DNA of 64,000 nucleotides from Dehalococcoidia bacterium (lineage in GTDB: Bacteria > Chloroflexota > Dehalococcoidia > Lucifugimonadales > Australimonadaceae), in NCBI GenBank assembly GCA_965116015.1, contig OZ220477.1, positions 985,076 to 1,049,075 on the forward strand. Reading direction: 5' to 3'. The notes beneath the pieces are model-generated. The model saw nothing but the letters and a program-made list of their open reading frames with translations. It was not told the DNA's origin and made no database searches. The position numbers and the translations under genes are program-made. How positions within the stretch are numbered: position 1 is the first letter of the stretch; the number at the start of each line of letters is the position of its first letter. Shown here piece by piece: positions 1,401 to 15,920 of this stretch.

Positions 1401-2876
1401 CTAGCCGTTGGCGCTGGCGCGGCGGATGTCCTTGCGGACTTTGCCGTCGGCGGTGAAGAGTTGCGGCCAGCGGGCTCGGAGCTCCTGAGCCTCCGCCTGC
1501 GTTTTGCGAGCGACAGGCGGGAATGTGCCGAGCCGGTCGTATGGCCGGCACGCGTCGATGATCATTCGGTTGTTGTAGTAACGCGGACCCTCGCCAGCAT
1601 AGGCCATAGGGTCGAGCGAGGTGCTCCACATACGCTTGACAATGTCGATGTCCTCGGTCACCTCGGTGCGGGTGCAGAGCGCCCATAGCACTTCGTTCGT
1701 GTCGGTGGGGTCGATGTCGTCGTCGACCACTATTACGAACCGGTTGGCGTACGCGCCGGCATGGACGGCGGTCGTGGCGTGGCCGACCTGTTTGGCGTGG
1801 CCGGGGTACATCTGCTTGATGGCGATGACGTTGAGGAAGCGTCCGCCGCCGGCTTCGTGGGACCATGCGCCGACGACGCCGGGGACGCCTGCGCGCTCGA
1901 GCTCGTCCCACAGCATCGCGGCGCGGAGGGGGCTGCGGAAGTAGGTGTTGTCGTTAGGGGGTTTGCCGGGAAGGCAGCCGACGACGATAGGGTCGTTGCG
2001 CCAGAGGACGGAGCGCACGTTGATGATGGGCATCTCGCGTTCGCCGCTGGCGTAATAGCCGGTCCATTCGCCGAACGGGCCTTCGGGGTGGAATTGGTCG
2101 GGGGGAATCTCGCCTTCGATGACGATCTCAGCTGTTGCGGGCACGGGGAGGCCGGTGTGAGGGGCGGAGACGACATCGAGAGCGTCGCCGCGGATGCCTC
2201 CGGCGACGGCGAATTCGTCTTCGCCGTAATCGACCTCCAGGCCGCCGAGAAGCAGGAGGAGGGGGTCGTGGCCGAAGGATACGGCGACAGGGCATGCCTG
2301 TCCCTTGGCCCAGTACTTCTCGCGGATGATGCGGCCGTGCTTGCCGGGAGAGATCATGATGCCGAGGGTGTTTCTGTCGTGCGCCTGCACGCGGTAGGTT
2401 CCAGCGTTGACCCATCCAGTGTCGGGATCGCGCATCACGACGATGTTGCCGGTGCCGAGGTAGTTTCCGCCGTCTTCGGAGTGCCAGAAGGGGGCGGGGA
2501 ATTGGGCGATGTCGACGTCGTCGCCTGTTTGCCGGTTTTCGAGCACGGGGCCGTCCTCGACCTGGCGCGGGGGAACGGGCTGAAACGTTTTGAGCTTGTC
2601 GCGCCACGCCTGCACGAATTGCTGGCGGGTGAGATGCGTGGGCAAGCCGAGGCTGAGACAGACTCGGGGCAACGAGGTAAGGACGTTGGCGATGAGCTTG
2701 TAGTTGTCTGGCAGGCCTTTGATTTTCTCGAAGAGGAGCGCGGGGTTCTCCATCTCCCATTGGTAGAGGTCGACGAGGCCTCCGATCTCCAGGTCTGGGT
2801 CGGCGCCCTCGACGCGGGTGAGCTCGCCGATCTCGTCCACAAGTCCAATCCACTCTCTAAGGTCGCGTACTGGCAT
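1401..2876 (-). CDS. UbiD-family (prFMN-dependent) decarboxylase
   Basis: DLREWI N-terminus, NAGTYR, AEIVIEG, EGPFGEWTGYY and VVDDDIDP motifs. Confidence 0.9.
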   Translation of the reverse strand: MPVRDLREWIGLVDEIGELTRVEGADPDLEIGGLVDLYQWEMENPALLFEKIKGLPDNYKLIANVLTSLPRVCLSLGLPTHLTRQQFVQAWRDKLKTFQPVPPRQVEDGPVLENRQTGDDVDIAQFPAPFWHSEDGGNYLGTGNIVVMRDPDTGWVNAGTYRVQAHDRNTLGIMISPGKHGRIIREKYWAKGQACPVAVSFGHDPLLLLLGGLEVDYGEDEFAVAGGIRGDALDVVSAPHTGLPVPATAEIVIEGEIPPDQFHPEGPFGEWTGYYASGEREMPIINVRSVLWRNDPIVVGCLPGKPPNDNTYFRSPLRAAMLWDELERAGVPGVVGAWSHEAGGGRFLNVIAIKQMYPGHAKQVGHATTAVHAGAYANRFVIVVDDDIDPTDTNEVLWALCTRTEVTEDIDIVKRMWSTSLDPMAYAGEGPRYYNNRMIIDACRPYDRLGTFPPVARKTQAEAQELRARWPQLFTADGKVRKDIRRASANG

Positions 2877-2954: not shown

Positions 2955-3377
2955 TTAGAGGAGGGAGTCGCTGTCGAGCAGCGTTCGCGCGAGGTCGTCG
3001 TTGTCGGTTGTTACGGCGGCGACGGCGGATCCGGCGTGGCGGTGGATGATGTGGGTAGTGCGCACGTTGAGTCCGGCCTGCTCCAAACGCTGCACGACGC
3101 TGGCGAGGGCTCCGGGGCGGTCGAGGAGGTGGAACACGATGGCGTCGGAGGTTACGGCGCGAAGGTTGGCTTTGAGGAGCGCGTGGAGCGCTGCGTCGTC
3201 GTCGCTCGTGCTTAGCGTGATGACGCCGAGCTCTCCCGCGAGTTGCCCGTCGATAGCTTCGATGCTGATGCTCTCTTCAGCGAGGAGGCCGGCGACGTAG
3301 GCAAGCTGATCCGGCTCATGCGGCGCGATGACGATGAGGCGGTGGCTGGGATTGTTGTCGCTGGCGGGCTGGCTCAT
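2955..3377 (-). CDS. tandem ACT-domain protein
   Basis: Two ACT-like repeats (HEPDQLAYVAGLL..ISIEAI; DRPGALASVVQRLEQAGLNV); 4-nt overlap with the upstream decarboxylase. Confidence 0.75.
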   Translation of the reverse strand: MSQPASDNNPSHRLIVIAPHEPDQLAYVAGLLAEESISIEAIDGQLAGELGVITLSTSDDDAALHALLKANLRAVTSDAIVFHLLDRPGALASVVQRLEQAGLNVRTTHIIHRHAGSAVAAVTTDNDDLARTLLDSDSLL

Positions 3378-4552
3378 TGCTTAGTTGGAGGCCATTCGAG
3401 GCAGTCGGCGACGATGTCGTCGATCATCTTGCGGGTTACGTGGGGCATCGTGATGAGGTGGGCAAAGTCGCCAAGCGGGGCGAGCTGCCATAGGAAGAGG
3501 ACGTAGGGAGAGGGGCGGGGGATGATGACGGTGGGGCTGTTCTTGCCTCGCCAGGCGGGGATGCCGTTGGCGTTGAACTGTTGCACGGCGTACTCGGCCG
3601 TGTCGAGCATATTCGCAACGACTTTGCGGAAGCCGTCGTTCCCATGCTTGGTAAGGGAGCACCAGAGGATGACGGGGGCAATTGCGCTTCGGGAGCCGAG
3701 GAGAGTGGTGTCGAGAGCGCCGACGTATTCGATGGCGCGGCCTATCTGCGCGGTGTGCTCGCGTTTCGTCACGACGACGCCGCAAGGCACGGGAGAGCCG
3801 AACATTTTGTGGCCGGAGACGGCGGCGCTGTCGATGCCGCTGTCGAAGCCGAACGGTTGGGGGTCGTCGACGAAGGGCAGGATCATGCCGCTAAGGGCCT
3901 CGTCGGCGTGGATGTAGTAGCGGGTGAGCGCGAGGTCGTCGATGATGCCGCGGATGCGGTCGAGGTTGTCGACGGCGCCCTTCATCGTTGTGCCGATGTT
4001 GGCGATGATGAGGGCGGGAGCGTCGCGGTTGATGCGGATCGACTCGCGGAGGTCGTCGTAGTCGATCTCGCCGTTCTCCTGGCTGCGGATCATGATGTTG
4101 CGGATATTCAGGATGTGGAGAATCTTGAGCACCGAGTAGTGGGTGTCTTGAGAGAAGTAGGCGATGGGTTCGTGGAGCATCTCTCTACCCACGTAGATGC
4201 CGTACATATTGCCTTCGGTGCCGCCGGCGGTGACGTAGCCCCAAGCGTTGTCGGGGGACAGGCGAAGGAGTTCGGCGACCGCGCGCACGACTTCGCGCTC
4301 GGTTTCGTGCGTGTTGGCCTGGTAGCGGGAGTAGCCGAACGGGTCGCCCACGTTGTTTGCGGCGAAAGTGAGGAGCGGGTAGAGCGCGGAGTAGTCGAAA
4401 TCCTGGTTTACGGGGTAGCCGGCGGAGAACGGGCCAACGAGCTGGAACTCGGAGAGCACTTGGCGGATGCGAGCGTCTAGTTCAGTTTGGCTCATAACGT
4501 CCCCAAGGAGTTGACAGGCCTCATCATAGTGAGCCCGCAGGAGGCTAGTCAA
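3374..4552 (-). CDS. hdc: PLP-dependent histidine decarboxylase-like (group II) enzyme
   Basis: GYPVNQDFDY, NNVGDPF, WGYVTAGGTEGNMYG, THYSV, HAD.ALSG, SGHKMFGSPVPCG (PLP lysine), H.ITMPH; substrate could also be serine. Confidence 0.8.
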   Translation of the reverse strand: MTSLLRAHYDEACQLLGDVMSQTELDARIRQVLSEFQLVGPFSAGYPVNQDFDYSALYPLLTFAANNVGDPFGYSRYQANTHETEREVVRAVAELLRLSPDNAWGYVTAGGTEGNMYGIYVGREMLHEPIAYFSQDTHYSVLKILHILNIRNIMIRSQENGEIDYDDLRESIRINRDAPALIIANIGTTMKGAVDNLDRIRGIIDDLALTRYYIHADEALSGMILPFVDDPQPFGFDSGIDSAAVSGHKMFGSPVPCGVVVTKREHTAQIGRAIEYVGALDTTLLGSRSAIAPVILWCSLTKHGNDGFRKVVANMLDTAEYAVQQFNANGIPAWRGKNSPTVIIPRPSPYVLFLWQLAPLGDFAHLITMPHVTRKMIDDIVADCLEWPPTKQ

Positions 4553-5062: not shown

Positions 5063-5524
5063 TCAGCTGTCGCCTTTGACCAGGGATTCGATCGACCGCA
5101 GTATGCCTGCATAGCCTGTGCAGCGGCAGATGTTGCCGCCCATATAGCGGATGATTTCTTCGCGGGAGGGGTTGGGGTTTTCGTCGAGGAGGGCCTTCGC
5201 GAGCAGAATCATCCCCGGGGTGCAGTAGCCGCACTGCAATCCGAAGTTGTCGACGAACGCCTGCTGGATGGGATGAAGTCCGCCGGCGGGGGTGATGCCC
5301 TCGATCGTGACGACGTCCCGCCCCTCGACTTGCCCGACGAGGAGGCTGCAGGAGCTAGCGGCGCGCCCGTCGAGCAGGACGGCGCAGGCGCCGCAGATGC
5401 CGCTGTGGCAGTAGTCTTTCGCGCCTTTCAGCCCGAGGTGGTTGCGCAGAGCGTCGAGGAGCGTGGAGGCTGGGGGAACGTCGATGCTCTGGGGAGCGCC
5501 GTTGACTGTGAGGTTGACGCGCAC
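5063..5524 (-). CDS. CoxS-like [2Fe-2S] subunit of Mo-hydroxylase
   Basis: CHSGICGAC, QCGYCTPG and NICRCTGY cysteine motifs. Confidence 0.92.
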   Translation of the reverse strand: MRVNLTVNGAPQSIDVPPASTLLDALRNHLGLKGAKDYCHSGICGACAVLLDGRAASSCSLLVGQVEGRDVVTIEGITPAGGLHPIQQAFVDNFGLQCGYCTPGMILLAKALLDENPNPSREEIIRYMGGNICRCTGYAGILRSIESLVKGDS

Positions 5525-5527
5525 GGA

Positions 5528-7864
5528 TTACTTCTCCGCCTCGCCCTTTGCCGCAGCTGTTGCATCGAGGGCCGCGAGAATCTTGTGGGGAAGGAGGGGC
5601 ACTTCGTGGAAGAGCGTTCCTGTTGCGTCGTAGACAGCGTTCAGGACAGCGCCGGGAACGACGACGGCGCCGATTTCGCCCATTCCCTTGGCGCCGAAGG
5701 GGCCGCCCTCGAACGGGTGGTCGACGAGGCAGGGAGCGTAGGCGGGCATCGTTTCCATAGTGGGCAGGGGATAGTCGAAGAGGGCGCTGTTGACGAGCTG
5801 CCCGCCATCGTCCCACACCATCTGCTCGAAGAGCGTGGGGCCTATCTCCTGCCCTACCCCGCCCTCGAGCTGGGTCTCGATGGAGAGGGGGTTGACGGCA
5901 GTTCCGGTAGTGGCGGCGGCAGCGGCCTTGACGACGCGGATATGGCCTGTCTCGGCGTCAATCTCGACCTCAACCGCGCAGGATGCGAACGTCCAGAATG
6001 TGGACGCGATCGGGTAATCGGCGCCGTCGGGAGCGCGGTACGAGCCGCCGACGACGCATTCGCCAGTTGCGGCGATGGGCGCGCCGACGCGCTGAGCGAG
6101 CTCGGGGAGGCTGATGAGGGGAGCGCCGCCGCTCGATGCGGAGACGCCGTCGCCGGCAAGCTCGAGGGAATCGGCGTCGCGCTCGAGCAGTTGCGATGCG
6201 GCCTCGATAATCTGGCTCCGCGCTCTGCCGGCGGCTTCGACCACGGCGACGCCCATATGGTAGGTAGAGCGGCTTGCGGTCGTGGAGCTGTCGACGGGGA
6301 CGCGGTCGGTGTCGCTGTGGACGATGCGGATTGATTCAAGGCCGACGCCAAGCGCGTCGCCCGCCAGCTGCGCCATTGTTGTATCCGAGCCTTGCCCGAT
6401 GTTCACCGTGCCGATGCGCGTCTCGAATACGCCGTCTTCACCGAGGACGACTTCGGCGGAGTTTTCGGACATCTGGCGTGGAGGCGTGAGGGTGTATTTG
6501 ATCGTGCAGGACACGCCGCGTCCGCGCAGGATCTTGCCGTCGGGCGAGGAGGCGAGCGGCGTGTCCCATCCGATAGCGGCGGCGGCCTTGTCGAGGCATT
6601 CGCGGGCATGGGCTGAGCGGAGATAGTCGCCGGTGATGTGGATGTCGCCGTCGCGAACGAGGTTCTTGCGGCGAATCTCGAGGCGGTCGATGCCGAGGTC
6701 GCGGGCGATGCGGTCGAGCTGCGCCTCGTAGGACATCGTGTGCTGCGTAGTGGGCAGGCCTCGGTACGGGGCTGACGGCGGCTTATTGGTGTAGACGGCG
6801 TAGCAGTCGACGCGAGCGTGGGGGATTTTGTAAGGGCCGGTAGCGACTTTGAGCGTGTTGTTGGCACTGCGGGCGCCGCTGATGGCGTAGGCGCCGACAT
6901 CGACGGAGAAGGAGTTGCGTCGGGCGACGATGGTTCCGTCGCGCATCACGCCGGTCTTCATTCGGTTCGCGTAGGCGGGCCTGAGGTACGTTTGGAACGT
7001 CTCTTCCTGGGTGAACACGTAGCGAACGGGGCGTCCCGCCAGTTTCGCCGCCGCGGTGATCACGCACTCGATGCGGTCGCGGCTCTTGCTTCCGAACCCG
7101 CCGCCGACGTAGGGGACGATGACGCGCGCGGGCATTCCGAACATCCGCTCGAGCTCGCGGCTGAGCGGAAACGGCGACTGGCAATTCGTCCAGACCGTGA
7201 TCCTGCCGCCGTCGACCTGCGAGATGACTGCGTGGAGATCGAGCGCGCAGTGCTGCACGGGGGGAGCCGAGAATTCGTCCTCGTACACGAAATCCGCCTC
7301 GGCGAAGCCTTGCTCTACGTCGCCTCGCGCGAGCGTGGCCTGGTGGCAGATGTTCGTGCCCGCAACAGGACGAAGCTCCGGGGCGATAGGGAAGAACTCG
7401 TCGTGCACGCGAGGAGCGCCCTCGGCCAGCGCGGACGCAACGTCCAGCGCCGCCGGCAATTCGATGTACTCGACATCGACAAGCTCCGCTCCCTCCTCGG
7501 CTGTTGCGATGTCCTCCGCCACGACAACTGCGATGATGTCGCCGTGGTGACGCGCCTTGTCCATCGCCACAAGGGGGGCGTCGCGGTAGACGAACCCGTA
7601 GAAATCCTCCATATCCGGATCGGCGCGCACCTCGTCGCGTGTGAGGACGCAGACGACGCCAGGCAGGGCGCGGGCAGCCGAGGCGTCGATGCGCTCGATG
7701 CGAGCGTGGGGGAAGGGGCTGCGCACGATCTTGGCGTGGGCCATGCCAGGCACGACGAGGTCGCCCATATATTCGACACGCCCGGCCGCCTTGTCAGCGG
7801 CCTCGAGGGTCGGCATCGATTGACCGACGAGGCGTGTTACGCGGTCGCTCGTTGCAGCGCACAT
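5528..7864 (-). CDS. xanthine dehydrogenase-family molybdopterin large subunit (CoxL-like)
   Basis: RSPFPHARI, YVGGGFGSK, GQGSDT, GPFGAKGMGE; active-site loop APYRGLP. Start uncertain (ATG 7864 or 7816, rather than 7912). Confidence 0.88.
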   Translation of the reverse strand: MCAATSDRVTRLVGQSMPTLEAADKAAGRVEYMGDLVVPGMAHAKIVRSPFPHARIERIDASAARALPGVVCVLTRDEVRADPDMEDFYGFVYRDAPLVAMDKARHHGDIIAVVVAEDIATAEEGAELVDVEYIELPAALDVASALAEGAPRVHDEFFPIAPELRPVAGTNICHQATLARGDVEQGFAEADFVYEDEFSAPPVQHCALDLHAVISQVDGGRITVWTNCQSPFPLSRELERMFGMPARVIVPYVGGGFGSKSRDRIECVITAAAKLAGRPVRYVFTQEETFQTYLRPAYANRMKTGVMRDGTIVARRNSFSVDVGAYAISGARSANNTLKVATGPYKIPHARVDCYAVYTNKPPSAPYRGLPTTQHTMSYEAQLDRIARDLGIDRLEIRRKNLVRDGDIHITGDYLRSAHARECLDKAAAAIGWDTPLASSPDGKILRGRGVSCTIKYTLTPPRQMSENSAEVVLGEDGVFETRIGTVNIGQGSDTTMAQLAGDALGVGLESIRIVHSDTDRVPVDSSTTASRSTYHMGVAVVEAAGRARSQIIEAASQLLERDADSLELAGDGVSASSGGAPLISLPELAQRVGAPIAATGECVVGGSYRAPDGADYPIASTFWTFASCAVEVEIDAETGHIRVVKAAAAATTGTAVNPLSIETQLEGGVGQEIGPTLFEQMVWDDGGQLVNSALFDYPLPTMETMPAYAPCLVDHPFEGGPFGAKGMGEIGAVVVPGAVLNAVYDATGTLFHEVPLLPHKILAALDATAAAKGEAEK

Positions 7865-8715
7865 AGCAAAGCTCGCTCCACCAGCGTTTTCATCACCCTG
7901 CGCTTGTACCACGCCGGGCCCCGCACGTCATCTATGGGGTCGGTCTCTTCTGCCGCGGACGCGGCGACCTCGGCGACGCGCGAGGGCGACGGAGCCTCTC
8001 CCGCCAGCCCGCGCCCTGCCTGCGCGACGATGGGCACAGGCCCGGCGGCTCCCATCACGATGCGGGCTGACGAGCACACGCCCGATGACGGATCAACGGT
8101 CGCCAGGACGGACGCATTAGCGACTGGTTTGTTCTCCGGAGAGCCTATGGCGAATTTCATGTGGCAGCCTCCCGCGCCCGGGCCTGGATGCGGCACATCG
8201 AGGCCAACCACCAACTCGCCGGGCTCTAGCGCCGTTTCATAGGGGCCGAGGTAGAAGTCCTCGAGAGCCGACGCGCGGCTGCCCGACGGCCCCGCGATAC
8301 GCACCGTGGCTCCGTAGGCGATGAGCGCCGCAGGCGTGTCCGTCTGTGGTTCGCCGTAGGCGACAGCGCCGCCGACCGTCGCGACGTTCCTCACTCGCAC
8401 GTTGGCGACTTGCGAGGCGGCCTCCGCAAGCAGGCCGTACTCCCGGCGCACGCCCTCGTTTAACTCGAGTGCGCGGATGCGCGTGAGCGCGCCGATGCGC
8501 AGCTCTCCGTTCTGCTCGAGGCCGTTCCGCTCGAGGCCGGTTAGTTCTTCAATGGCGCCGATGTCGACGACGTACTCGGGGCGCACGACGCCGAGCTCCA
8601 GCATCACGACGGCGGCGCTGCCGCCGCCCAGCACGAGCGACGCGTCGGCGTTTTCAGCCAGGAACGCGGTCGCTTCCGCAATCGTAGCGGGGCGCACGTA
8701 TTCGAACGGCTGCAT
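7837..8715 (-). CDS. CoxM-like FAD-binding subunit
   Basis: MQPFEYVRPAT, LGGGS, VRNVATVGG, DDVRGPAWYKR. Confidence 0.9.
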   Translation of the reverse strand: MQPFEYVRPATIAEATAFLAENADASLVLGGGSAAVVMLELGVVRPEYVVDIGAIEELTGLERNGLEQNGELRIGALTRIRALELNEGVRREYGLLAEAASQVANVRVRNVATVGGAVAYGEPQTDTPAALIAYGATVRIAGPSGSRASALEDFYLGPYETALEPGELVVGLDVPHPGPGAGGCHMKFAIGSPENKPVANASVLATVDPSSGVCSSARIVMGAAGPVPIVAQAGRGLAGEAPSPSRVAEVAASAAEETDPIDDVRGPAWYKRRVMKTLVERALLCALQRATA

Positions 8716-8719
8716 ACTG

Positions 8720-9718
8720 CTAGCGAGCCTTCCGGATAACGTCCTCGGCGAAACCGAAGAGGTACTCCTTGCGGGCCTCGAGCGTCGCGGGCAGGTTGTA
8801 GAAGGTCACGCCCACGTAGTCCACGCCCGCCTCGGCCAGCTGACCGAACTGTTCGAGGCAGTCGTCGCCGTTGCCAGCAGCCGCCCAGTCGTCGATTCTG
8901 GAATCGCTCTCGATGTTGATCCGCACCATTGTGTCTTCCTGCATATTCCAGGCGCTGTACATCCGGTAGGAGGACTGCGCCGCGGCTTGGGCTTCGGCGA
9001 TAGCGGAGTCGCGGTCTTTCGCGAACGCCACGCCCCGCGAGATTGTTACACGTCCGGCGTCATTGCGGCCGGCAGCGGCGCGCTCGTTGCGGTAGAGGTC
9101 AACGAGCCTCTGGATGTTGCCGAAGCCGACTTGCGGCGCGATGTAGCAGGCGTCGGCGATGCGGGCGGCGCGGCGCACTGCGCCGTCGCTCTGGCAAGCG
9201 ATCCAGATGGGGGGGTGCGGCTGCTGCACGGGGAGGAATCCCATCCGGGCGCCGTGGATAGTCCAGTAGCGGCCTTCGTGGTCGACTTCCTCGCCAGACC
9301 AGAGGCGTTTCATCAGCGCGATCGATTCGGCGAGGCGCGGAGCGCGGTCCTTGCGGGTTGCGCCGACGGCTTCGAGTTCGGTTTCCCGGTATCCGATGCC
9401 GACGCCCAGCGTGAAGCGTCCGTGGCAGATGTGATCGAGGGTTGCCGTGTCTTCGGCGATCTGGACAGGGTTGTGGAGCGGCAGCAGGACGATGCCGGTG
9501 AGCAGGCGCATCGTTCCGGTTTCGGGAGCGAGGCGAGAGAGAACTTGAAAGGGCTGAGGCCAGATTGTGGGATGCGACACCCAGTGCTGGGGCATTGTGA
9601 CGGCGGAGAAGCCGCTGTCGCGGGCGACATGGCATATCTCCACGAGGTCGTCGAGTTGCTCATACAGGGGGCGAGTTCGGTCGGTCAGGAAAGAACGCAG
9701 GTAGAGGCCGAATTGCAT
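8720..9718 (-). CDS. LLM-class flavin-dependent oxidoreductase
   Basis: LLPLHNPVQIAEDTATLD, GRFTLGVGIGYRETE, PVQQPHPPIWIA. Confidence 0.9.
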   Translation of the reverse strand: MQFGLYLRSFLTDRTRPLYEQLDDLVEICHVARDSGFSAVTMPQHWVSHPTIWPQPFQVLSRLAPETGTMRLLTGIVLLPLHNPVQIAEDTATLDHICHGRFTLGVGIGYRETELEAVGATRKDRAPRLAESIALMKRLWSGEEVDHEGRYWTIHGARMGFLPVQQPHPPIWIACQSDGAVRRAARIADACYIAPQVGFGNIQRLVDLYRNERAAAGRNDAGRVTISRGVAFAKDRDSAIAEAQAAAQSSYRMYSAWNMQEDTMVRINIESDSRIDDWAAAGNGDDCLEQFGQLAEAGVDYVGVTFYNLPATLEARKEYLFGFAEDVIRKAR

Positions 9719-9853
9719 AGCGATTCCGTCGCATTAAGGTCGGAAGAGAGCCTACCAGAGAGGGAGAGCGCCTGCCATCGCCAGATCTCTCGCCTTGCCC
9801 TGGCAGGCGCCTCGCAGCCATCCGCCTTGACTGCGGGACGCGTTCACTCCAGG

Positions 9854-10663
9854 TTACTCCAGGAGGAACTGCCGAACGGCGGAGACGTACGCGTCCGGCT
9901 GTTCGAGGTGGACCCAGTGGCCGCCGCCAGCAATCTCTACGAGCCGGCAGTTCGGAAGCTCCTGCTCCATACGCAGAGCGACTTCGCGGCGCAGCAGCGT
10001 GCTGTCCGCGCCGCGGACGATGAGGGTGGGCGCGCCGACGCTGGGCAAGCTCTCCCACACGTCGGGGCGGTCGTACTGAGTCACGACATCGCGGCTGCGC
10101 TTCCACGTGTAGCCGCCGTTGCCGGTTGGTCTGGCCAGCGCGGCGGCGTTCCTGCGCAGCTCCTCGTCGCTTGCGTTCGGCTGACGGGAGCGCAAACGCT
10201 CCACTACGGATTCGAAATCGGGGTAGTTGTCGGATTCGCCCTTGTAGCGGGAGATCATGGCGACAGAGCCGGGGTTGTAGGAGTCTGGGTCCATATCGGT
10301 AATCACGAGGCGGGACGCGGCCTCCGGATGCTGGGCGATGCACATCCACGCGTTCTTGCTGCCCGCCGAGTGGCCGATGAGGGTTGCGCCGGCGAGGCCG
10401 AGCTCGTCGATGACCGCGTTCGTCTCGGCCACGTAATCGGCCAGGCGGTAGGATTCCGCGCGGGGGCTGTCGCCGTGCCCCCGGTGGTCGAGCGCGACGA
10501 CGTGGAAATCGCCGCGCATCGACTCCGCGAATGTGGCCCAGAGCGCTGCGGAGTCTTGGAGTCCGTGCAGGAGCAGGAGATGCGGAGCGTCGGGGTTGCC
10601 CCAGTCGAGGTAGTGCAGATCGAGGCCGTGGGCGCGAACGGAGCCGTCGGTTGGAGTGGTCAT
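9854..10663 (-). CDS. alpha/beta-fold hydrolase
   Basis: LLLHG, DHRGHGDS, GHSAG nucleophile elbow, GHWVHLEQP. Confidence 0.9.
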   Translation of the reverse strand: MTTPTDGSVRAHGLDLHYLDWGNPDAPHLLLLHGLQDSAALWATFAESMRGDFHVVALDHRGHGDSPRAESYRLADYVAETNAVIDELGLAGATLIGHSAGSKNAWMCIAQHPEAASRLVITDMDPDSYNPGSVAMISRYKGESDNYPDFESVVERLRSRQPNASDEELRRNAAALARPTGNGGYTWKRSRDVVTQYDRPDVWESLPSVGAPTLIVRGADSTLLRREVALRMEQELPNCRLVEIAGGGHWVHLEQPDAYVSAVRQFLLE

Positions 10664-10700
10664 AGGGGCGTCTTTCCGGCGCCCTGGTTGGGCGTGCGAG

Positions 10701-10730
10701 AGCGTAGAGGCGCGCCAAGTGCCGCGTCAA
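10701..10730 (-). promoter_or_regulatory. putative sigma70-type promoter for the hydrolase/LLM/cox operon
   Basis: TTGACG-18nt-TACGCT on the minus strand upstream of 10663. Confidence 0.4.
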
Positions 10731-10922
10731 CCGCGCGAGAAACGGAACAAGCCGTCCAGCGCAGAACATCTGATGTCTGTGCGCTCCTCAGCAAGCTGAC
10801 GCCCTGGCGGCGCAAAGCGATGCACGGCTTAGGCAAGCTGGAGAGTTCCGACGCCAACTGGCCAAGCAATTCCAGCGAGTCCGGGTTGGCCCGGACTCGC
10901 CCATTCGCCGCGTAGTCGCAGT

Positions 10923-12008
10923 TCACACTACGGTTATCGGATGCGGCGCGGCGGCCCAGAACTCGTATCCGCGCTCGTTCCACTTCATCGTTTCGGGCTC
11001 TGGTTGCGTGTTTCCGGCGGTGTCGGTGGCGCGCATCGTAATGGCGTGCTCGCCCTTCGGCGCATCCCAGATGAACTCCCACCGGCAGCCGCCAAGCGGG
11101 ATGTTGGGCTCCTGTATGATCGCCTCGGCCCATGTCTTGCCGCCGTCGAGGCTGTACTCGACCATGCTAATGGCGCCGTGACCCGACCAGGCGTAGCCGC
11201 GAATGGCTTGCTCGCCCGCCTGCAACGTCGCCGGCCAGGCCAGCGCGATGCCGGAGCGCACGGGCGTTGTCGTGAGGACAGGGCCCCACGCCGGCGGCTC
11301 CGCGGGGAAGCCGGGACCTTCGAGCACATACTCTTCCGTGTTCCGCATCACGTGGATGGGCTCTTCGGCCACGTGTATCTTGCCGACCCACTTGATGCTG
11401 TTGACGCCCACCCATCCGGGGACGACGACTCTGGCGGGGTAGCCGTGGTCGGGAGGAAGCACGTCGCCGTTCATTGCGTAAGCGACGATAGTGTCGGGCT
11501 CCATTGCTTTGGCGACGGACATCGGGCGCTCGACTGCCGCCTTGTCGAGCCCGGTGGGCATCACGTCGACGGCTGAGGGCTTGAGTCCGGCGCGCTGGAG
11601 GATCTCGCGCAGCGGCGCGCCGGTCCACTCCGCGACGGCGTAGGAGCCGTAGCGCCAGGGCCGCCCCTTCGGCATCTTCCCCTGATATTCCTTGAAGAAG
11701 ATGCGTCCGTTGCCCGCGCACTCGATGAACCGCGTCGCTGTCGTCGACGGCATTCGCAGCAGTTCGTCGTAACTGATGCTCAGGGGGTTCTCGACGCCGG
11801 GGCCTTCGACGCTGAGCGTCCACGTTGCGGCGTCGATGATGGGGGTCGGGCCGTGGTTGCGAATGTAGAAGAGCGAAGCGGGCGTCAGATAGCCCCGCCC
11901 GTACAGCTGCTCCCACCGCGTCTCAACGCACACGTCGTGGTGAAAGAACATCTCGTCCGGCGTCGGCTTCACGTGCGTGCCGGGAGGCGTAGGGTTCTGC
12001 TGGGTCAT
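10923..12008 (-). CDS. sulfite oxidase-family molybdoenzyme (Moco plus dimerisation domain), no obvious Tat signal
   Basis: FYIRNH, ECAGNGR (Mo-ligand Cys), EWTG, AYAMNG..LPPDHGYPARVVVPGWVG..SIKW, VEYSLDGG.TW, RATD.AGNTQP; AAGGAG RBS. Confidence 0.9.
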   Translation of the reverse strand: MTQQNPTPPGTHVKPTPDEMFFHHDVCVETRWEQLYGRGYLTPASLFYIRNHGPTPIIDAATWTLSVEGPGVENPLSISYDELLRMPSTTATRFIECAGNGRIFFKEYQGKMPKGRPWRYGSYAVAEWTGAPLREILQRAGLKPSAVDVMPTGLDKAAVERPMSVAKAMEPDTIVAYAMNGDVLPPDHGYPARVVVPGWVGVNSIKWVGKIHVAEEPIHVMRNTEEYVLEGPGFPAEPPAWGPVLTTTPVRSGIALAWPATLQAGEQAIRGYAWSGHGAISMVEYSLDGGKTWAEAIIQEPNIPLGGCRWEFIWDAPKGEHAITMRATDTAGNTQPEPETMKWNERGYEFWAAAPHPITVV

Positions 12009-12043
12009 ACGGCGCTCCTTCTCACCGTCCGCATCGGGGGCAT

Positions 12044-12077
12044 AAAGAAACCCCGCAGCGCGCTGGGCGCTACGGGG
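12044..12077 (-). terminator. intrinsic terminator (attenuator) in the leader of the sulfite oxidase-like gene
   Basis: Minus strand CCCCGTAGCGC-CCAGC-GCGCTGCGGGG-TTTCTTT: 11-bp stem with one G-U pair followed by a U-rich tract, 36 nt before the gene start. Confidence 0.8.
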
Positions 12078-12147
12078 CGATGGCGAGCAAGATTGCGCGA
12101 GGCGCGCAACACGCCGAGCAGCAACAGGAACAACACGCGCACGCCAT
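12070..12147 (-). CDS. cysteine-rich leader peptide (25 aa)
   Basis: GGAGG, 5 nt, ATG; translates MACACCSCCCSACCAPRAILLAIAP*, 8 Cys in the first 14 codons; stop lies inside the terminator 5' arm. Confidence 0.78.
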   Translation of the reverse strand: MACACCSCCCSACCAPRAILLAIAP

Positions 12148-12182
12148 CGGACCCTCCGAACGCAAGGACTTGGGATGCGCGG

Positions 12183-12211
12183 ACTCTACGACGCAGCGCG
12201 GAGGGCGTCAA
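12183..12211 (-). promoter_or_regulatory. sigma70-type promoter for the Cys leader/sulfite oxidase unit
   Basis: TTGACG-17nt-TAGAGT on the minus strand, about 35 nt upstream of the leader ATG. Confidence 0.6.
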
Positions 12212-12286
12212 CTACGCCTGTCGCGCTCCAGGAGCCGCTCGCCGCTTGCCCCGTGGGCTGCGCGCGGATAGCATCCTTGCGCAGTT

Positions 12287-13150
12287 ATGAAGCCATTCCT
12301 CTTGCACGAGCCGACCACTATCGACGAGGCGGTTGGGCTGCTCGCTGAGGGCGACGGCGACGCCAAGATCTACGCCGGCGGCACGGAACTGCTGCTGGCG
12401 ATGAAAGCCGGCGTGCTCCAGTGCGCCTCCCTCGTCAACGTCAAGACGATTCCCGGCCTGGATTGCATCGGGGTCGAGGATGGCGAACTCGTTATCGGCG
12501 CAGCTGCGACCCACAGCGCGATAGAGCACAGCCCAGCCGTTCAGGAGCAGCTGCCGCTGCTGTGCGAGGTGGAGCGACGCGTCGCCAACGTGCGCGTCCG
12601 CAACGTGGGGACGCTTGCGGGCAACCTCTGCTTCGCCGACCCGCACTCCGACCCCGCCACGCTGCTGCTCGCGCTCGAGGCGACGCTCACGGCGGCAGGA
12701 CCGCAGGGAGCGCGCCAGGTCGCCATCGCCGATCTGCAGCTCGGCGCCTACGAGACCTCCCTCGGCGAGGACGAGCTGATCGTCGATGTTCGCATCCCTC
12801 TCCCATCCGCCAGCACGCGGACGGCGTACCTGAAGTTCGGGCATCACCACCGCCCGACTCTGGGGGTGGCCGCCGCGCTCGACGTAGAGGGCGACGTGAT
12901 CGCCGACGCGCGGCTCGCGCTCGGGTGCGTGGGGCCTGTCGCCTCGCGATTGACGCGCTCGGAGCAGGCGCTGCGCGGCGCGCGCGCGAGCGCGCTCGAC
13001 GCTGGGTCGGCGCCGCTGCGGGAGGCGGCGTCCCTCGCAAGGGAAGACGCCGAGGCCATCGACGATCTCCACGGCTCGGCGGAGTACAAGGAACATCTAA
13101 CGGGCGTGTTTGTGGAGCGCGCAATCCTCAGCGCGCTGATGCGGCGCTAA
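12287..13150 (+). CDS. CoxM-like FAD-binding subunit
   Basis: YAGGTELL, VRNVGTLAGNLC.ADP.SD, DDLHGSAEYK. Confidence 0.9.
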   Translation: MKPFLLHEPTTIDEAVGLLAEGDGDAKIYAGGTELLLAMKAGVLQCASLVNVKTIPGLDCIGVEDGELVIGAAATHSAIEHSPAVQEQLPLLCEVERRVANVRVRNVGTLAGNLCFADPHSDPATLLLALEATLTAAGPQGARQVAIADLQLGAYETSLGEDELIVDVRIPLPSASTRTAYLKFGHHHRPTLGVAAALDVEGDVIADARLALGCVGPVASRLTRSEQALRGARASALDAGSAPLREAASLAREDAEAIDDLHGSAEYKEHLTGVFVERAILSALMRR

Positions 13151-13179
13151 TGCGATGAGGGACAGGGAAGGAGCATAGC

Positions 13180-13668
13180 TTGAACGGATCGGAACGCGGC
13201 GTCGCTATCGCATTCGAACTGAACGGGCGCCCGGTGGAGACAGTCGTTGCGCCGGAGACTGCGCTCATCGATATGCTGCGCGACGAGTTCGAGCTGCGCG
13301 GAGCCAAACGCTCCTGCGATATGCAGGTGTGCGGCGCATGCACGGCGCTGCTCAACGGGAAGCCTGTAAGCGCCTGCACCGTGCCTGCGTTCGAGGCGCG
13401 CGGCGCGTCTGTCCTCACCGTTGAGGGTCTGGCCGCAGACGAGGGTTCGCGCCCGCTGTTGGAGGCGTTCGTCGACTGCGCAGCGTTCCAGTGCGGGTAC
13501 TGTACGCCCGGGATGCTGCTCACCGCGAAATCGCTGCTCGACGCGCGCCCTCGCGCGTCGGAGGACGATGTCAAGGACTATATGAACGGCAATCTGTGCA
13601 GGTGCACAGGCTACAAGAAGATTGTCGAGGCCGTGCTGCAGGCGGCGGGAGGAGCGGGAGGAGGATGA
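13180..13668 (+). CDS. CoxS-like [2Fe-2S] subunit
   Basis: CDMQVCGACT, QCGYCTPG, NLCRCTGY. Confidence 0.9.
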   Translation: MNGSERGVAIAFELNGRPVETVVAPETALIDMLRDEFELRGAKRSCDMQVCGACTALLNGKPVSACTVPAFEARGASVLTVEGLAADEGSRPLLEAFVDCAAFQCGYCTPGMLLTAKSLLDARPRASEDDVKDYMNGNLCRCTGYKKIVEAVLQAAGGAGGG

Positions 13669-15920
13669 CCAGCGAGCCCAATCCCGGCGGAATCGAGCGC
13701 GCCTTTCGCACTGTGGGGCAAGCTGTCCGGCGCGTCGACGCCGACGACAAGCTGTCGGGCCGGGCGCAGTTCACTGGCGATTTGCAGATTGCAGGGATGG
13801 CCTACGCCAAGCTCGTGACCAGCCCCCTGCCGCATGCGCGGATCGTGAGCATCGACGCAAGCGCCGCGAGAGCGCTCCCGGGCGTCTATGCGGCGCTCAC
13901 CGCAGCCGAACTCGTCGGAATGGAAACGCACTACGGCTCCGACAAGAAGGATCGGCCGGTGGTCGCCATCGACAAGGCGCGATTCCAGGGCGAGCCGGTC
14001 GCAGCCGTCGCCGCGGTCGATCTTGCTACGGCGGAGGCCGCTGCTGAACTCGTGGAGGTGGAGTACGAGGAACTCCCCGTCGTGATGGACATCGCCGCGG
14101 CCCTCGACGCCGGAGCCGAGGCCATCCACGACTCGAATCTCTGTCATGAATACGGCTACGAGTGGGGAGATGTTGACGCCGCGTTCGCCTCGTGCGACCG
14201 GGTGTTCGAAGACACGTTCACGTTCCCGATGGTGTACCACTACGCGATGGAGCCGCACGCCTGCATTGCGAGCTACGAGCCTGACCGCATCCGGCTTTGG
14301 ACATCGGCGCAGCATCCGTTTCTCGTGCGGGCGGAGATCGCCCGGCTCTTCCGCCGTCAGCTCGACCAGGTGCAGGTTGTCTCGCCGTACGTGGGCGGGG
14401 GTTACGGCAGCAAGTCGTACACAAAAATCGAGCCGGTTGTCGTCGCGTTGAGCCGGGAAGCAGGGCGGCCGGTTCGCCTTGCGCTCACGGTCGAGGAGGC
14501 GATGCGCACAGTTCGGCGCCACGCCGCGAGGGCGACCATCCGAACCGGAGTTATGAACGACGGGGCGATCGTCGCGCGGGAGTGCGCGGCCTACGTCGAT
14601 ACTGGCGGCTACACCGACAACGGCGTGCGCGTTACGGAGCGCATCGCCGACCGAATGCCCGGGCCGTACAAGCTCGCCCACGTGCGGACGAGGTCGTACG
14701 GGGTGTTCACGAACACGACGCCGGCAGGCTCCTACCGCTCCATCGGCGGGCCCCAGGCCGTCTGGGCAGGGGAGTCGCAGATCGACATCATCGCGGACGC
14801 GCTGGGCATCGACCCGGTTGAACTGCGAATCAGGAATCTCGTCCCGCAGGGCGAGGAAGTGCGACGCGGCAAGCGGCCCATCGAGGGGAATCTGGAGCCG
14901 TCCTTGCGCCGCGTGGCCGAGGAGTTTGGTTGGGCAGGCTACGCGCCAGGGCCAACGCCCCCGGGCGTGAAGCGCGGCATCGGGTTCGCGTGCAGCGTCA
15001 CCAACTCAGGGGCCAGCCCGACCTCCACCGCCCTCGTTCGTCTCCACGCCGACGGCAGCGCGACGGTGTATATGGGGAGCGCCGAGATGGGGCAGGGCTC
15101 ACGCTCAGCAATGGCGCAGATCGCCGCCGAGGAGCTCCGCATTCCCTACGAAAAGGTGCGCGTAATCGCATCCGACACCGACGCTGTGCCGTTCGACCGT
15201 TCGACGGGGTCGAGCCGGTCGACGACGCTGATGGGACTTGCCGTGCACGACGCGGCGGTCGACGTGCGCGAGCAGGCGTTGCGGCTCGCCGCCGAGTATT
15301 TCGAGACGTTTCCAGAACAGCTGGAAGCCGAAGACGAGCAAGTGAAATTCCGGGGGGAGACGGTCACGTTCGGCGCTCTTATCCGTGATATGTTCGGCGG
15401 CTCCGGCGGCGAGCTCATCGGCAGGGGGTACGTTACGCCGAGACACGCGAGCGGCAAGCTGCGCATGGATCCCGTCTTCTGGGAGGTGAGCATCGGAGCC
15501 GCGGAGATTGAGGTCGACACCGCAACCGGCGAGCTGCGCATCCTGCGCTATTACTCCGCCGCCGACCCGGGAAAGGCGATCAATCCCAAGCAGGTCGAGG
15601 GGCAGGACGAGGGCGCCGCGATGCAGGCCATCGGCCACACGCTCTTCGAGGAGATGGTCTACGATGAAGGGCAGCTCCTCAATCCGAATATGATTGATTA
15701 CCGCGCCCCAACGTTCGCCGACTTGCCCGGGGTTTTCGAGACTGTCCTGATCGAGAATGGCGACGGGCCAGGGCCGTACGGAGCGAAAGGCGTCGGCGAG
15801 GGCGGCATTGTCGCCGTCGCGCCAGCTGTGGCGAACGCACTGTTCAACGCCACGGGAGCGCGTGTCAAGGATCTCCCGCTCACGCCTGAGCGCGTCTGGC
15901 GGGCGCTTCAGAGCCTGTAG
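13665..15920 (+). CDS. xanthine dehydrogenase-family molybdopterin large subunit (CoxL-like)
   Basis: ATGA overlap with the coxS-like stop, GGAGG RBS; YVGGGYGSK, loop GSYRSIGG, EMGQGS, GPYGAKGVGE. Confidence 0.9.
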   Translation: MTSEPNPGGIERAFRTVGQAVRRVDADDKLSGRAQFTGDLQIAGMAYAKLVTSPLPHARIVSIDASAARALPGVYAALTAAELVGMETHYGSDKKDRPVVAIDKARFQGEPVAAVAAVDLATAEAAAELVEVEYEELPVVMDIAAALDAGAEAIHDSNLCHEYGYEWGDVDAAFASCDRVFEDTFTFPMVYHYAMEPHACIASYEPDRIRLWTSAQHPFLVRAEIARLFRRQLDQVQVVSPYVGGGYGSKSYTKIEPVVVALSREAGRPVRLALTVEEAMRTVRRHAARATIRTGVMNDGAIVARECAAYVDTGGYTDNGVRVTERIADRMPGPYKLAHVRTRSYGVFTNTTPAGSYRSIGGPQAVWAGESQIDIIADALGIDPVELRIRNLVPQGEEVRRGKRPIEGNLEPSLRRVAEEFGWAGYAPGPTPPGVKRGIGFACSVTNSGASPTSTALVRLHADGSATVYMGSAEMGQGSRSAMAQIAAEELRIPYEKVRVIASDTDAVPFDRSTGSSRSTTLMGLAVHDAAVDVREQALRLAAEYFETFPEQLEAEDEQVKFRGETVTFGALIRDMFGGSGGELIGRGYVTPRHASGKLRMDPVFWEVSIGAAEIEVDTATGELRILRYYSAADPGKAINPKQVEGQDEGAAMQAIGHTLFEEMVYDEGQLLNPNMIDYRAPTFADLPGVFETVLIENGDGPGPYGAKGVGEGGIVAVAPAVANALFNATGARVKDLPLTPERVWRALQSL

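Follow-up and report, generated by a model that had tools for sequence, protein, structure and literature searches.

Which way would a leader peptide that reads cysteine switch a gene of the sulfite oxidase family? The question is raised by a 64,000-nucleotide stretch of the genome of a Dehalococcoidia bacterium (GenBank assembly GCA_965116015.1, contig OZ220477.1, positions 985,076 to 1,049,075), which is referred to here as the window. On its minus strand, a short open reading frame (sORF) crowded with cysteine codons and followed by an intrinsic terminator precedes a gene for a molybdenum cofactor (Moco) enzyme. To our knowledge, every characterised amino-acid leader-peptide attenuator switches biosynthetic genes on in starvation. 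A sequence-only reading of the window had proposed that this leader works with inverted logic, the gene being on in cysteine excess. The computational analysis described here supports that proposal. The direction of the response is one that we infer from the placement of the leader stop codon, the absence of an antiterminator from the leaders tested, the classical layout of cysteine leaders at assimilatory genes and published Escherichia coli data on stop distance. We conclude that the element is very probably a cysteine-responsive, ribosome-mediated attenuator of one sign or the other. Judging from its sequence, it probably acts on transcription, reads the supply of cysteinyl-tRNA with reversed sign and would turn its gene on in cysteine sufficiency.

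Anatomy and conservation of the cysteine leader

All elements described in the sequence-only reading, namely the promoter, GGAGG, the 25-residue cysteine frame, the internal hairpin, the terminator, the ribosome-binding site and the gene, are present on the minus strand upstream of a SUOX-family Moco gene. A promoter scan placed a -35-like hexamer, TTGACG, at 12206..12211 and a -10-like hexamer, TAGAGT, at 12183..12188, separated by a 17-nt spacer. TTGAC is retained in 16 of the 17 leaders that could be aligned, and a TAnnGT-type box occupies the same alignment columns as TAGAGT in most of them. The combination TTGACG-17-TAGAGT (12211..12183) is the sole promoter-like match within positions 9000-14000 (0.4 ± 0.6 in shuffled sequence). 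The -10 box is predicted to end 35 nt before the ATG and the transcript to start about 30 nt upstream of the sORF, which is therefore, on promoter prediction only, not leaderless.

A Shine-Dalgarno (SD) sequence, GGAGGG (12152..12157), stands before the leader start codon, and SD-like purine runs precede the chosen start in 23/24 leaders. The sORF (12070..12147, with its ATG at 12147 and its TAG at 12072..12070) has 25 codons and encodes the peptide MACACCSCCCSACCAPRAILLAIAP. Its eight Cys codons, four TGT and four TGC, fall within codons 3-14 (12106..12141), the putative sensor region. With eight Cys in 12 residues, it ranks first in Cys density when the 2.39-Mb genome is read from stop to stop in all six frames; the next-best frame has six. 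The last two Cys codons are spanned by a hairpin, P2 (TTGCGCG-CCT-CGCGCAA, 12093..12109), which lies 14 nt upstream of the terminator and possibly acts as an RNA polymerase pause or synchronising hairpin. The intrinsic terminator (12044..12078) consists of a stem-loop (12078..12050) followed by TTTCTTT, with the T-tract running to 12044; the stem has 12 pairs, nine of them G-C, and a folding energy of -24.5 kcal/mol. By count alone the terminator scan is not significant (one found against 2.2 ± 1.5 in shuffles), and the advantage of the 186-nt leader over shuffles in folding is only moderate (z = -2.3, 5/200). No Rfam family matched positions 10500-13500 at permissive thresholds; a CRISPR-DR20 hit (E = 0.11) lies inside a coding region and was set aside as chance.

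Directly after the T-tract, a conserved ATGCCCC opens a 12-codon mini-frame (12005..12043) whose TGA overlaps the ATG of the main gene. The main-gene SD sequence, AAGGAG, is found at 12015..12020, and AGGAGG-like runs are aligned at this place in all 17 leaders. ATGCCCC is kept at the same position in leaders L002-L044, and this conservation is at the nucleotide level. A conserved peptide encoded by the mini-frame was considered and rejected, as frame and end point vary among leaders: in 21 of them, the stop overlaps the main ATG in 11, the frame is continuous with the main gene in five, a start is lacking in two and other ends are found in three. The GCCCC of this motif could pair with the GGGGC of the terminator 3' arm.

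The gene that follows (10923..12008, ATG at 12008) encodes a 361-aa protein. As had been proposed, it is a Moco enzyme of the sulfite oxidase family, with Pfam matches to Oxidored_molyb (PF00174, 2.8e-52) and Mo-co_dimer (PF03404, 1e-12), both above cut-offs. Among solved structures, sulfite oxidases and dehydrogenases match it best (E = 8e-47), and its CAGNGR motif aligns with CAGNRR of solved sulfite oxidases; the Cys of this motif is presumably the Mo ligand. The NCBIfam models for SoxC, SorT and SorA scored 225.6, 193.4 and 165.7 bits, all below their cut-offs of 420, 570 and 600. The protein has no signal peptide; against homologues with a twin-arginine (Tat) motif, at 50-63% identity, its N-terminus lines up with their mature portion.

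A search upstream of orthologues for conserved Cys runs and a terminator, proposed in the earlier reading as a check, bore it out. Both are found upstream of 24/24 close orthologues that are without a signal peptide and have enough upstream DNA; L059, with only 76 nt upstream, and L074, with none, were left out of this count. The module accompanies 10/10 orthologues at 66-100% identity in 41 related genomes, 11/11 loci at 86-87% identity in metagenome-assembled genomes named as Dehalococcoidia, Chloroflexota or SAR202 cluster, and 3/3 assessable close metagenome contigs. It is absent upstream of 4/4 genome-contig homologues at 54-59% identity, of 19/19 metagenome homologues at 50-63% identity, 16 of which have the twin-arginine motif, and of 20/20 homologues at ≤47% identity. 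Two of these last 20 have four scattered Cys in a GC-rich frame but no run.

The terminator is the only helix recovered by a consensus fold of the 17 alignable leaders. Its pairing holds in 99.3% of alignment cells, a figure that drops to 44-46% once the partner columns are shifted; two of its pairs change on both sides. Each of the 17 leaders also folds a hairpin at the P2 position, with differing sequences and energies of -14.5 to -23.4 kcal/mol; read from the 17 sequences, this hairpin lies around the second Cys cluster and ends 13-18 nt before the terminator. A pairing of the -35 box with the Cys region in the same consensus fold is an artefact of including untranscribed promoter DNA in the alignment. 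Leaders L007, L008 and L009 keep the same layout with leader and terminator sequences that are unrelated. At locus L010 (G005 C2 ~427477-428549), the oxidase orthologue matches as two overlapping pieces, the N-terminal one with three TGA codons. This points to a possibly broken or duplicated gene, though its Cys leader is intact.

Stop-codon placement and the predicted direction of the response

The sequence-only reading had placed the leader stop in the 5' arm of the terminator. In the window, the TAG is indeed positioned 6 nt inside this arm, and in 24/24 leaders the stop lies at or beyond the arm, from -4 to +72 relative to its start. Between five and eight Cys codons precede the terminator in each of the 24, the last of them 22-33 nt upstream of the 5' arm. 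In L001, L002 and L003 the stop is fixed at +6 although it switches between TAG and TGA, and the 3' arm changes to match. For comparison, the stops of the E. coli thr, trp, his, leu and phe leaders lie at -20 to -63, and that of pyrL at +44.

An antiterminator was looked for by truncating each transcript before the terminator 3' arm and, for a ribosome stalled at each regulatory codon in turn, retaining only the RNA beyond it. The free energy gained when the 5' arm pairs with upstream RNA was then scored against 100 shuffles of the intervening RNA. The observed pairing was reached by 0/100 shuffles for the thr leader, 1/100 for trp, 4/100 for leu and 0/100 for phe; the his leader was missed by the test (25/100), and pyrL gave 47/100. 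For ten oxidase Cys leaders the figure was 35-97/100, and in L001-L005 the 5' arm pairs less than in 92-97% of shuffles. The test thus detects four of the five classical E. coli leaders and not pyrL, and it shows no antiterminator above the shuffled background in 10/10 oxidase leaders. In geometry and in the antiterminator test, the oxidase leaders behave like pyrL and not like trpL. An equilibrium walk of the ribosome along the leader, in which the terminator formed at every Cys codon in 10/10 leaders, was dropped; it showed no effect in thrL, trpL, hisL and leuL either.

Published E. coli data bear on the effect of such a layout. In the accessible text of one study, moving a stop codon from 28 bp to 5 bp before the terminator tR2 lowered termination from about 90% to less than 10% in a translation-dependent manner, and the hairpin was estimated to fold only if 10-15 nt separating it from the A site are left free (PMC4824070). 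The available part of another describes a polyproline stall upstream of the translated pyrL terminator, at which termination was raised in an efp mutant (PMC5021804); this engineered stall shows the behaviour that we propose here for a Cys-starved ribosome.

In the attenuator with reversed sign, transcription would begin about 30 nt upstream of the 25-codon leader with its eight Cys codons, half of them rare TGT. With plentiful Cys-tRNA, the first ribosome would keep pace with RNA polymerase, melt the hairpin over the last Cys codons and arrive at the stop inside the terminator 5' arm; in relatives it would translate through the terminator. The finishing ribosome would physically block the terminator hairpin, and the sulfite-oxidase-type gene would be transcribed. 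With scarce Cys-tRNA, the ribosome would stall on the Cys codons, at least 22-33 nt short of the terminator, and the polymerase would move ahead. Without a competing antiterminator, the hairpin would form and transcription would end.

Several known leaders share parts of this design. In the pyrBI leader (pyrL) of E. coli and Salmonella, as here, the leader frame runs into or through an intrinsic terminator and an antiterminator is absent; our controls reproduced both features. Read-through at pyrBI needs a ribosome translating close behind the polymerase, as set out in the text available for that system (PMC5021804). Its signal is uridine triphosphate (UTP)-dependent pausing, which returns the polymerase to the ribosome, whereas the variable partner proposed here is the ribosome, slowed at Cys codons. 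In addition, pyrL has no run of one codon, and its target, organism and sequence are unrelated to those of the Cys leader. The trpL, hisL, thrL, leuL and pheL leaders resemble the oxidase leader in having a short frame with a run of codons for a single amino acid, followed by an intrinsic terminator, and in them the ribosome senses charged tRNA. These leaders have an antiterminator, a stop 20-63 nt before the terminator and biosynthetic targets, and they are on in starvation. The oxidase leader, unlike them, shows no antiterminator, has its stop at or beyond the 5' arm, has a dissimilatory or detoxifying target and is predicted to be on in sufficiency. The tna leader is like the predicted behaviour of the oxidase leader in that a catabolic operon is on in amino-acid excess. 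TnaC responds to free tryptophan inside the ribosome tunnel, blocking Rho; it differs from the oxidase leader in having neither a codon run nor an intrinsic terminator.

Cysteine codons in upstream frames have been described before. The mycobacterial polycysteine sORFs (Ms5788A; Canestrari et al. 2020) are, as far as the accessible text goes, likewise unannotated upstream frames with consecutive Cys codons, at which cysteine is sensed by ribosome pausing. They are described in that text as leaderless, as unmasking an SD sequence for translation, as on at low cysteine and as forming a multi-locus Cys-biosynthesis 'ribulon' (bioRxiv 10.1101/834739), whereas the oxidase leader is SD-led, terminator-based, present once per genome and found in a different phylum. 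Two further cases share a Cys-codon upstream open reading frame (uORF) with the oxidase leader, according to the portions of the papers at hand. In Rhodobacterales, uORFC-8-2 has two tandem Cys codons and an intrinsic terminator before cysS, with classical logic proposed (PMC8632094), and actinobacterial Cys leaders were predicted without terminators by Seliverstov et al. 2005 (PMC1262725).

Cysteine leaders at assimilatory genes and a proposed sulfite branch point

The source genome has a second Cys leader, outside the window, before a NirA-family sulfite/nitrite reductase gene (minus strand, L046:2459-2575, equal to C1 ~435330-435446 of the genome). Its sORF, MNQIPRRLACACCCWT, starts about 10 nt after a -10-like box and is nearly leaderless. 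Its stop lies at -36 relative to a hairpin of -20.3 kcal/mol, whose T-tract is modest. A candidate antiterminator in this leader weakens as the ribosome advances, from -7.2 to -2.5 kcal/mol, but is not significant (47/200 shuffles). Among relatives, 22 of 30 sulfite-reductase loci have a Cys sORF by the criterion used, and 14/30 also have a hairpin and T-run by a crude finder, with stops at -26 to -39 and one doubtful case at -66. A homologous sORF and the GCGCCCTTCTC...GAGAAGGGCGC hairpin are present in all 10 genomes with the oxidase leader, four identified by script and six by eye; several of these ten reductase leaders have poor T-tracts, and that of G006 has only three dispersed Cys.

Similar leaders precede cysDN and cysH-cysDN operons elsewhere in the order. 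A weak match of the covariance model built on the oxidase leader, in genome G033, precedes cysD and cysN (CysD above cut-offs); the sORF there, MYRRNKIKGTCCTCCCPTGVGV, stops 32 nt before a terminator. CysD occurs in only 9/151 genomes of the order. A Cys sORF and a terminator precede all three cysD-headed operons, the stops being placed at -32, -32 and -31. The module is also found at four of six cysH-cysD loci (stops at -31 to -42), the other two having, respectively, an sORF without a terminator that passes the filter and neither element. This gives 7/9 cysDN and cysH-cysDN loci with the module and stops at -31 to -42. At L093:1500-1635, L095 ~1299-1410 and L096 ~1273-1415, before cysDN or cysH-cysDN, and upstream of cysH at L097, L099, L100 and L102, all in other families of the order, the Cys-run sORFs are nearly leaderless and are followed by terminators. 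Strong antiterminators were found in L095 and L096 (-12.7 and -14.4 kcal/mol, reached by 2/100 and 0/100 shuffles), and no significant one in L094 (40/200). The assimilatory leaders of the order start 7-10 nt after -10-like boxes. Their stops do not overlap in placement with those of the oxidase leaders: -26 to -42, with the one doubtful -66, as against -4 to +72.

The gene content of the source genome, which is 96% complete, suggests what these two leaders may govern. No match to PF01507, the family of adenosine 5'-phosphosulfate (APS)/3'-phosphoadenosine 5'-phosphosulfate (PAPS) reductase and CysD, was found in it, nor one to TIGR00339 (sulfate adenylyltransferase), and CysN matched only below cut-off. 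The NirA-family reductase and two CysK/M-like genes are present, as are three TauE-family genes. Genes for sulfate activation and APS/PAPS reduction are thus missing from the matches while a NirA-type reductase is present, and sulfite would therefore be a branch point. If the reductase acts on sulfite, then sulfite is the entry to cysteine and its oxidation to sulfate is irreversible. When cysteine is short, sulfite would be reserved for assimilation, and when cysteine suffices it would be oxidised to sulfate. An oxidase that is off in Cys-tRNA scarcity would be coherent with a classical leader on the reductase. The available text on a SAR202 genome notes a sulfite oxidase and discusses sulfite from organosulfur compounds (PMC5395668).

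Taken together, two leaders that read the same Cys-tRNA signal with opposite sign may steer a sulfite fork in SAR202-like Dehalococcoidia, the sign being set by the position of the stop relative to the terminator; we give this reading an even chance. The reductase, with its stop about 36 nt upstream, would be on when cysteine is short, and the cytoplasmic oxidase would be on when cysteine suffices.

Alternative readings, neighbouring genes and wider meaning

The strongest competitor is a classical Cys attenuator, left open in the sequence-only reading, in which stalling relieves termination and the gene is on when cysteine is short, by way of an antiterminator or rearrangement that escaped our test. 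We consider it unlikely, though it would follow the logic of all characterised amino-acid leaders known to us. The same logic is reported for the mycobacterial poly-Cys sORFs and proposed for the cysS leader uORFC-8-2 in the accessible text of both sources (bioRxiv 10.1101/834739; PMC8632094). In folds of the truncated transcripts the 5' arm does pair to some extent with the RNA before it, at -1 to -10 kcal/mol, but this is no better than in shuffles for 10/10 leaders and below nearly all shuffles in the five named above. With a stop at -4 to +72, a finishing ribosome would also block the terminator, so that both states would read through and there would be no regulation, whereas assimilatory leaders of the same order hold their stops 26-42 nt upstream. 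A sulfite oxidiser induced during Cys shortage would also waste the apparent sulfur source.

Other points weigh against the reversed sign that we favour. The antiterminator test misses hisL, one of the five classical controls, and is non-significant for two of the four assimilatory Cys leaders (L094 and the sulfite-reductase leader of the source genome), so that a short antiterminator in the oxidase leaders could escape it. The 24 leaders are mutually related, and independent leader lineages perhaps number five. Coupling of translation to transcription in Chloroflexota is suggested by the classical-looking leaders of the same order only. A search for RNA runs containing this part of the genome found none. 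The substrate of the 361-aa enzyme is assigned tentatively, from family membership only, and the NirA-family reductase could be a nitrite reductase. Finally, a source of sulfite was not found in the source genome: there is no cysteine dioxygenase (CDO), and Xsc and SsuD are below cut-offs.

A second alternative is a leader that couples transcription to translation without specific sensing of cysteine, as a form of growth-rate or general starvation control in which the Cys codons are incidental or otherwise used. The occlusion geometry and the E. coli data would fit it, as any translation defect would raise termination. We nevertheless hold it to be improbable, given the codons themselves. Five to eight Cys codons are kept in 24/24 leaders that otherwise diverge, against a Cys share of 0.83% of codons in a crude set of 1000 long open reading frames of the genome. 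The rare codon TGT is enriched, making up 4/8 of the Cys codons in the window leader and 12% in the long frames of the genome, and the same codon signal occurs at sulfur-assimilation genes of the same organisms.

It is highly improbable that the sORF makes a functional Cys-rich peptide, for instance a chaperone of the molybdoenzyme or a partner that binds metal or sulfur, with a hairpin that terminates or stabilises in the ordinary way. In its favour are the conserved Cys clusters and the resemblance among the L004-type peptides. The 24 leaders, however, encode 21 distinct peptides with little in common beyond the Cys runs. Their length ranges from 23 to 53 residues across lineages, their C-terminal tails come from different frames with a shifting stop position, and where tails are conserved they coincide with terminator nucleotides. 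A co-expressed partner that ends in or beyond a strong terminator before the downstream start would also be hard to explain, and the metallothionein-like product that had been put forward as an alternative is unlikely. Equally remote is translational attenuation of the mycobacterial kind demonstrated for Ms5788A, in which the position of the sORF ribosome alters a structure masking the main ribosome-binding site and the hairpin with its T-tract is not a terminator: the stretch after the terminator does pair with the 5' untranslated region in the full-leader fold, but a strong G+C stem with a T-tract is found in 24/24 leaders, non-homologous ones included, the main SD lies 25-40 nt past the hairpin, and the consensus fold of the 17 leaders, which was not a dedicated test, gave no conserved helix involving that SD.

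The oxidase gene is the only gene that always follows the leader. An alpha/beta-hydrolase-like gene downstream (9854-10663, minus strand), called by eye from its translation, is present in 7/21 leader-bearing loci within the available flanks, and a divergent CoxM-like gene in 9/21. A 369-aa frame at 9660-10769 (minus strand) is a spurious Arg/Pro-rich frame and was rejected as an operon partner; an 837-aa frame at 8402-10915 (plus strand) is likewise spurious, an Arg/Pro-rich or antisense frame of high-GC DNA. The locus is flanked by two three-subunit gene sets for molybdoenzymes of the xanthine-dehydrogenase/CO-dehydrogenase family, at 12287-15920 (plus strand) and 5063-8715 (minus strand). 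The first of these points away from the leader promoter, its ATG only about 75 nt from the -35 box. An F420/flavin mononucleotide (FMN) luciferase-like monooxygenase gene lies downstream in the window (8720-9718, minus strand). The SsuD model gave 15 paralogue matches across the genome, all below cut-off, which fits the expansion of flavin monooxygenases reported from SAR202. The window also has a gene for a histidine-decarboxylase-type pyridoxal phosphate (PLP) enzyme, above its NCBIfam cut-off (3374-4552, minus strand), and, farther down that strand, one for a UbiD-family decarboxylase (1401-2876, minus strand).

The covariance model of the leader found one copy per genome, in 10/61 relatives; it missed the divergent leader types of L007, L008 and L009. 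Seven of its matches coincide with known oxidase loci, and those in G042 and G051 were identified by the model alone. A genome-wide scan for poly-Cys frames returned 106 with at least five Cys in 12 residues, a threshold under which the four-Cys sulfite-reductase leader falls. The two next-best short frames were rejected as further leaders: both lie inside apparent coding regions, one of them antisense to a release-factor-like gene as judged by eye.

No published link between a leader peptide and sulfite oxidase regulation was found, although supplements, which lay outside the search, might list further Cys-uORFs. The search likewise found no literature on ribosome-mediated attenuation in Chloroflexi. 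New here are the sulfite-oxidase target, the occlusion geometry with its implied reversed sign and the occurrence of both designs together in a single genome. If the reversed sign is true, the leader would be the first case in nature of an amino-acid-sensing attenuator whose logic is inverted, and a few nucleotides of stop placement would suffice to invert the sign of the same sensor. The design rule, by which the distance from stop to terminator sets the sign, would be reusable in synthetic biology. It would follow that nature uses stall-induced uncoupling of ribosome and polymerase as a dedicated sensor, which in the available text has so far been shown in engineered constructs (PMC5021804). 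For these bacteria, it would mean matched push-pull control of sulfite without a regulatory protein, and tight transcription-translation coupling at work, and put to regulatory use, in Chloroflexota. The sulfite oxidase of SAR202, as noted in the accessible text (PMC5395668), would then be regulated as an overflow or energy-yielding outlet and not as part of sulfur acquisition.

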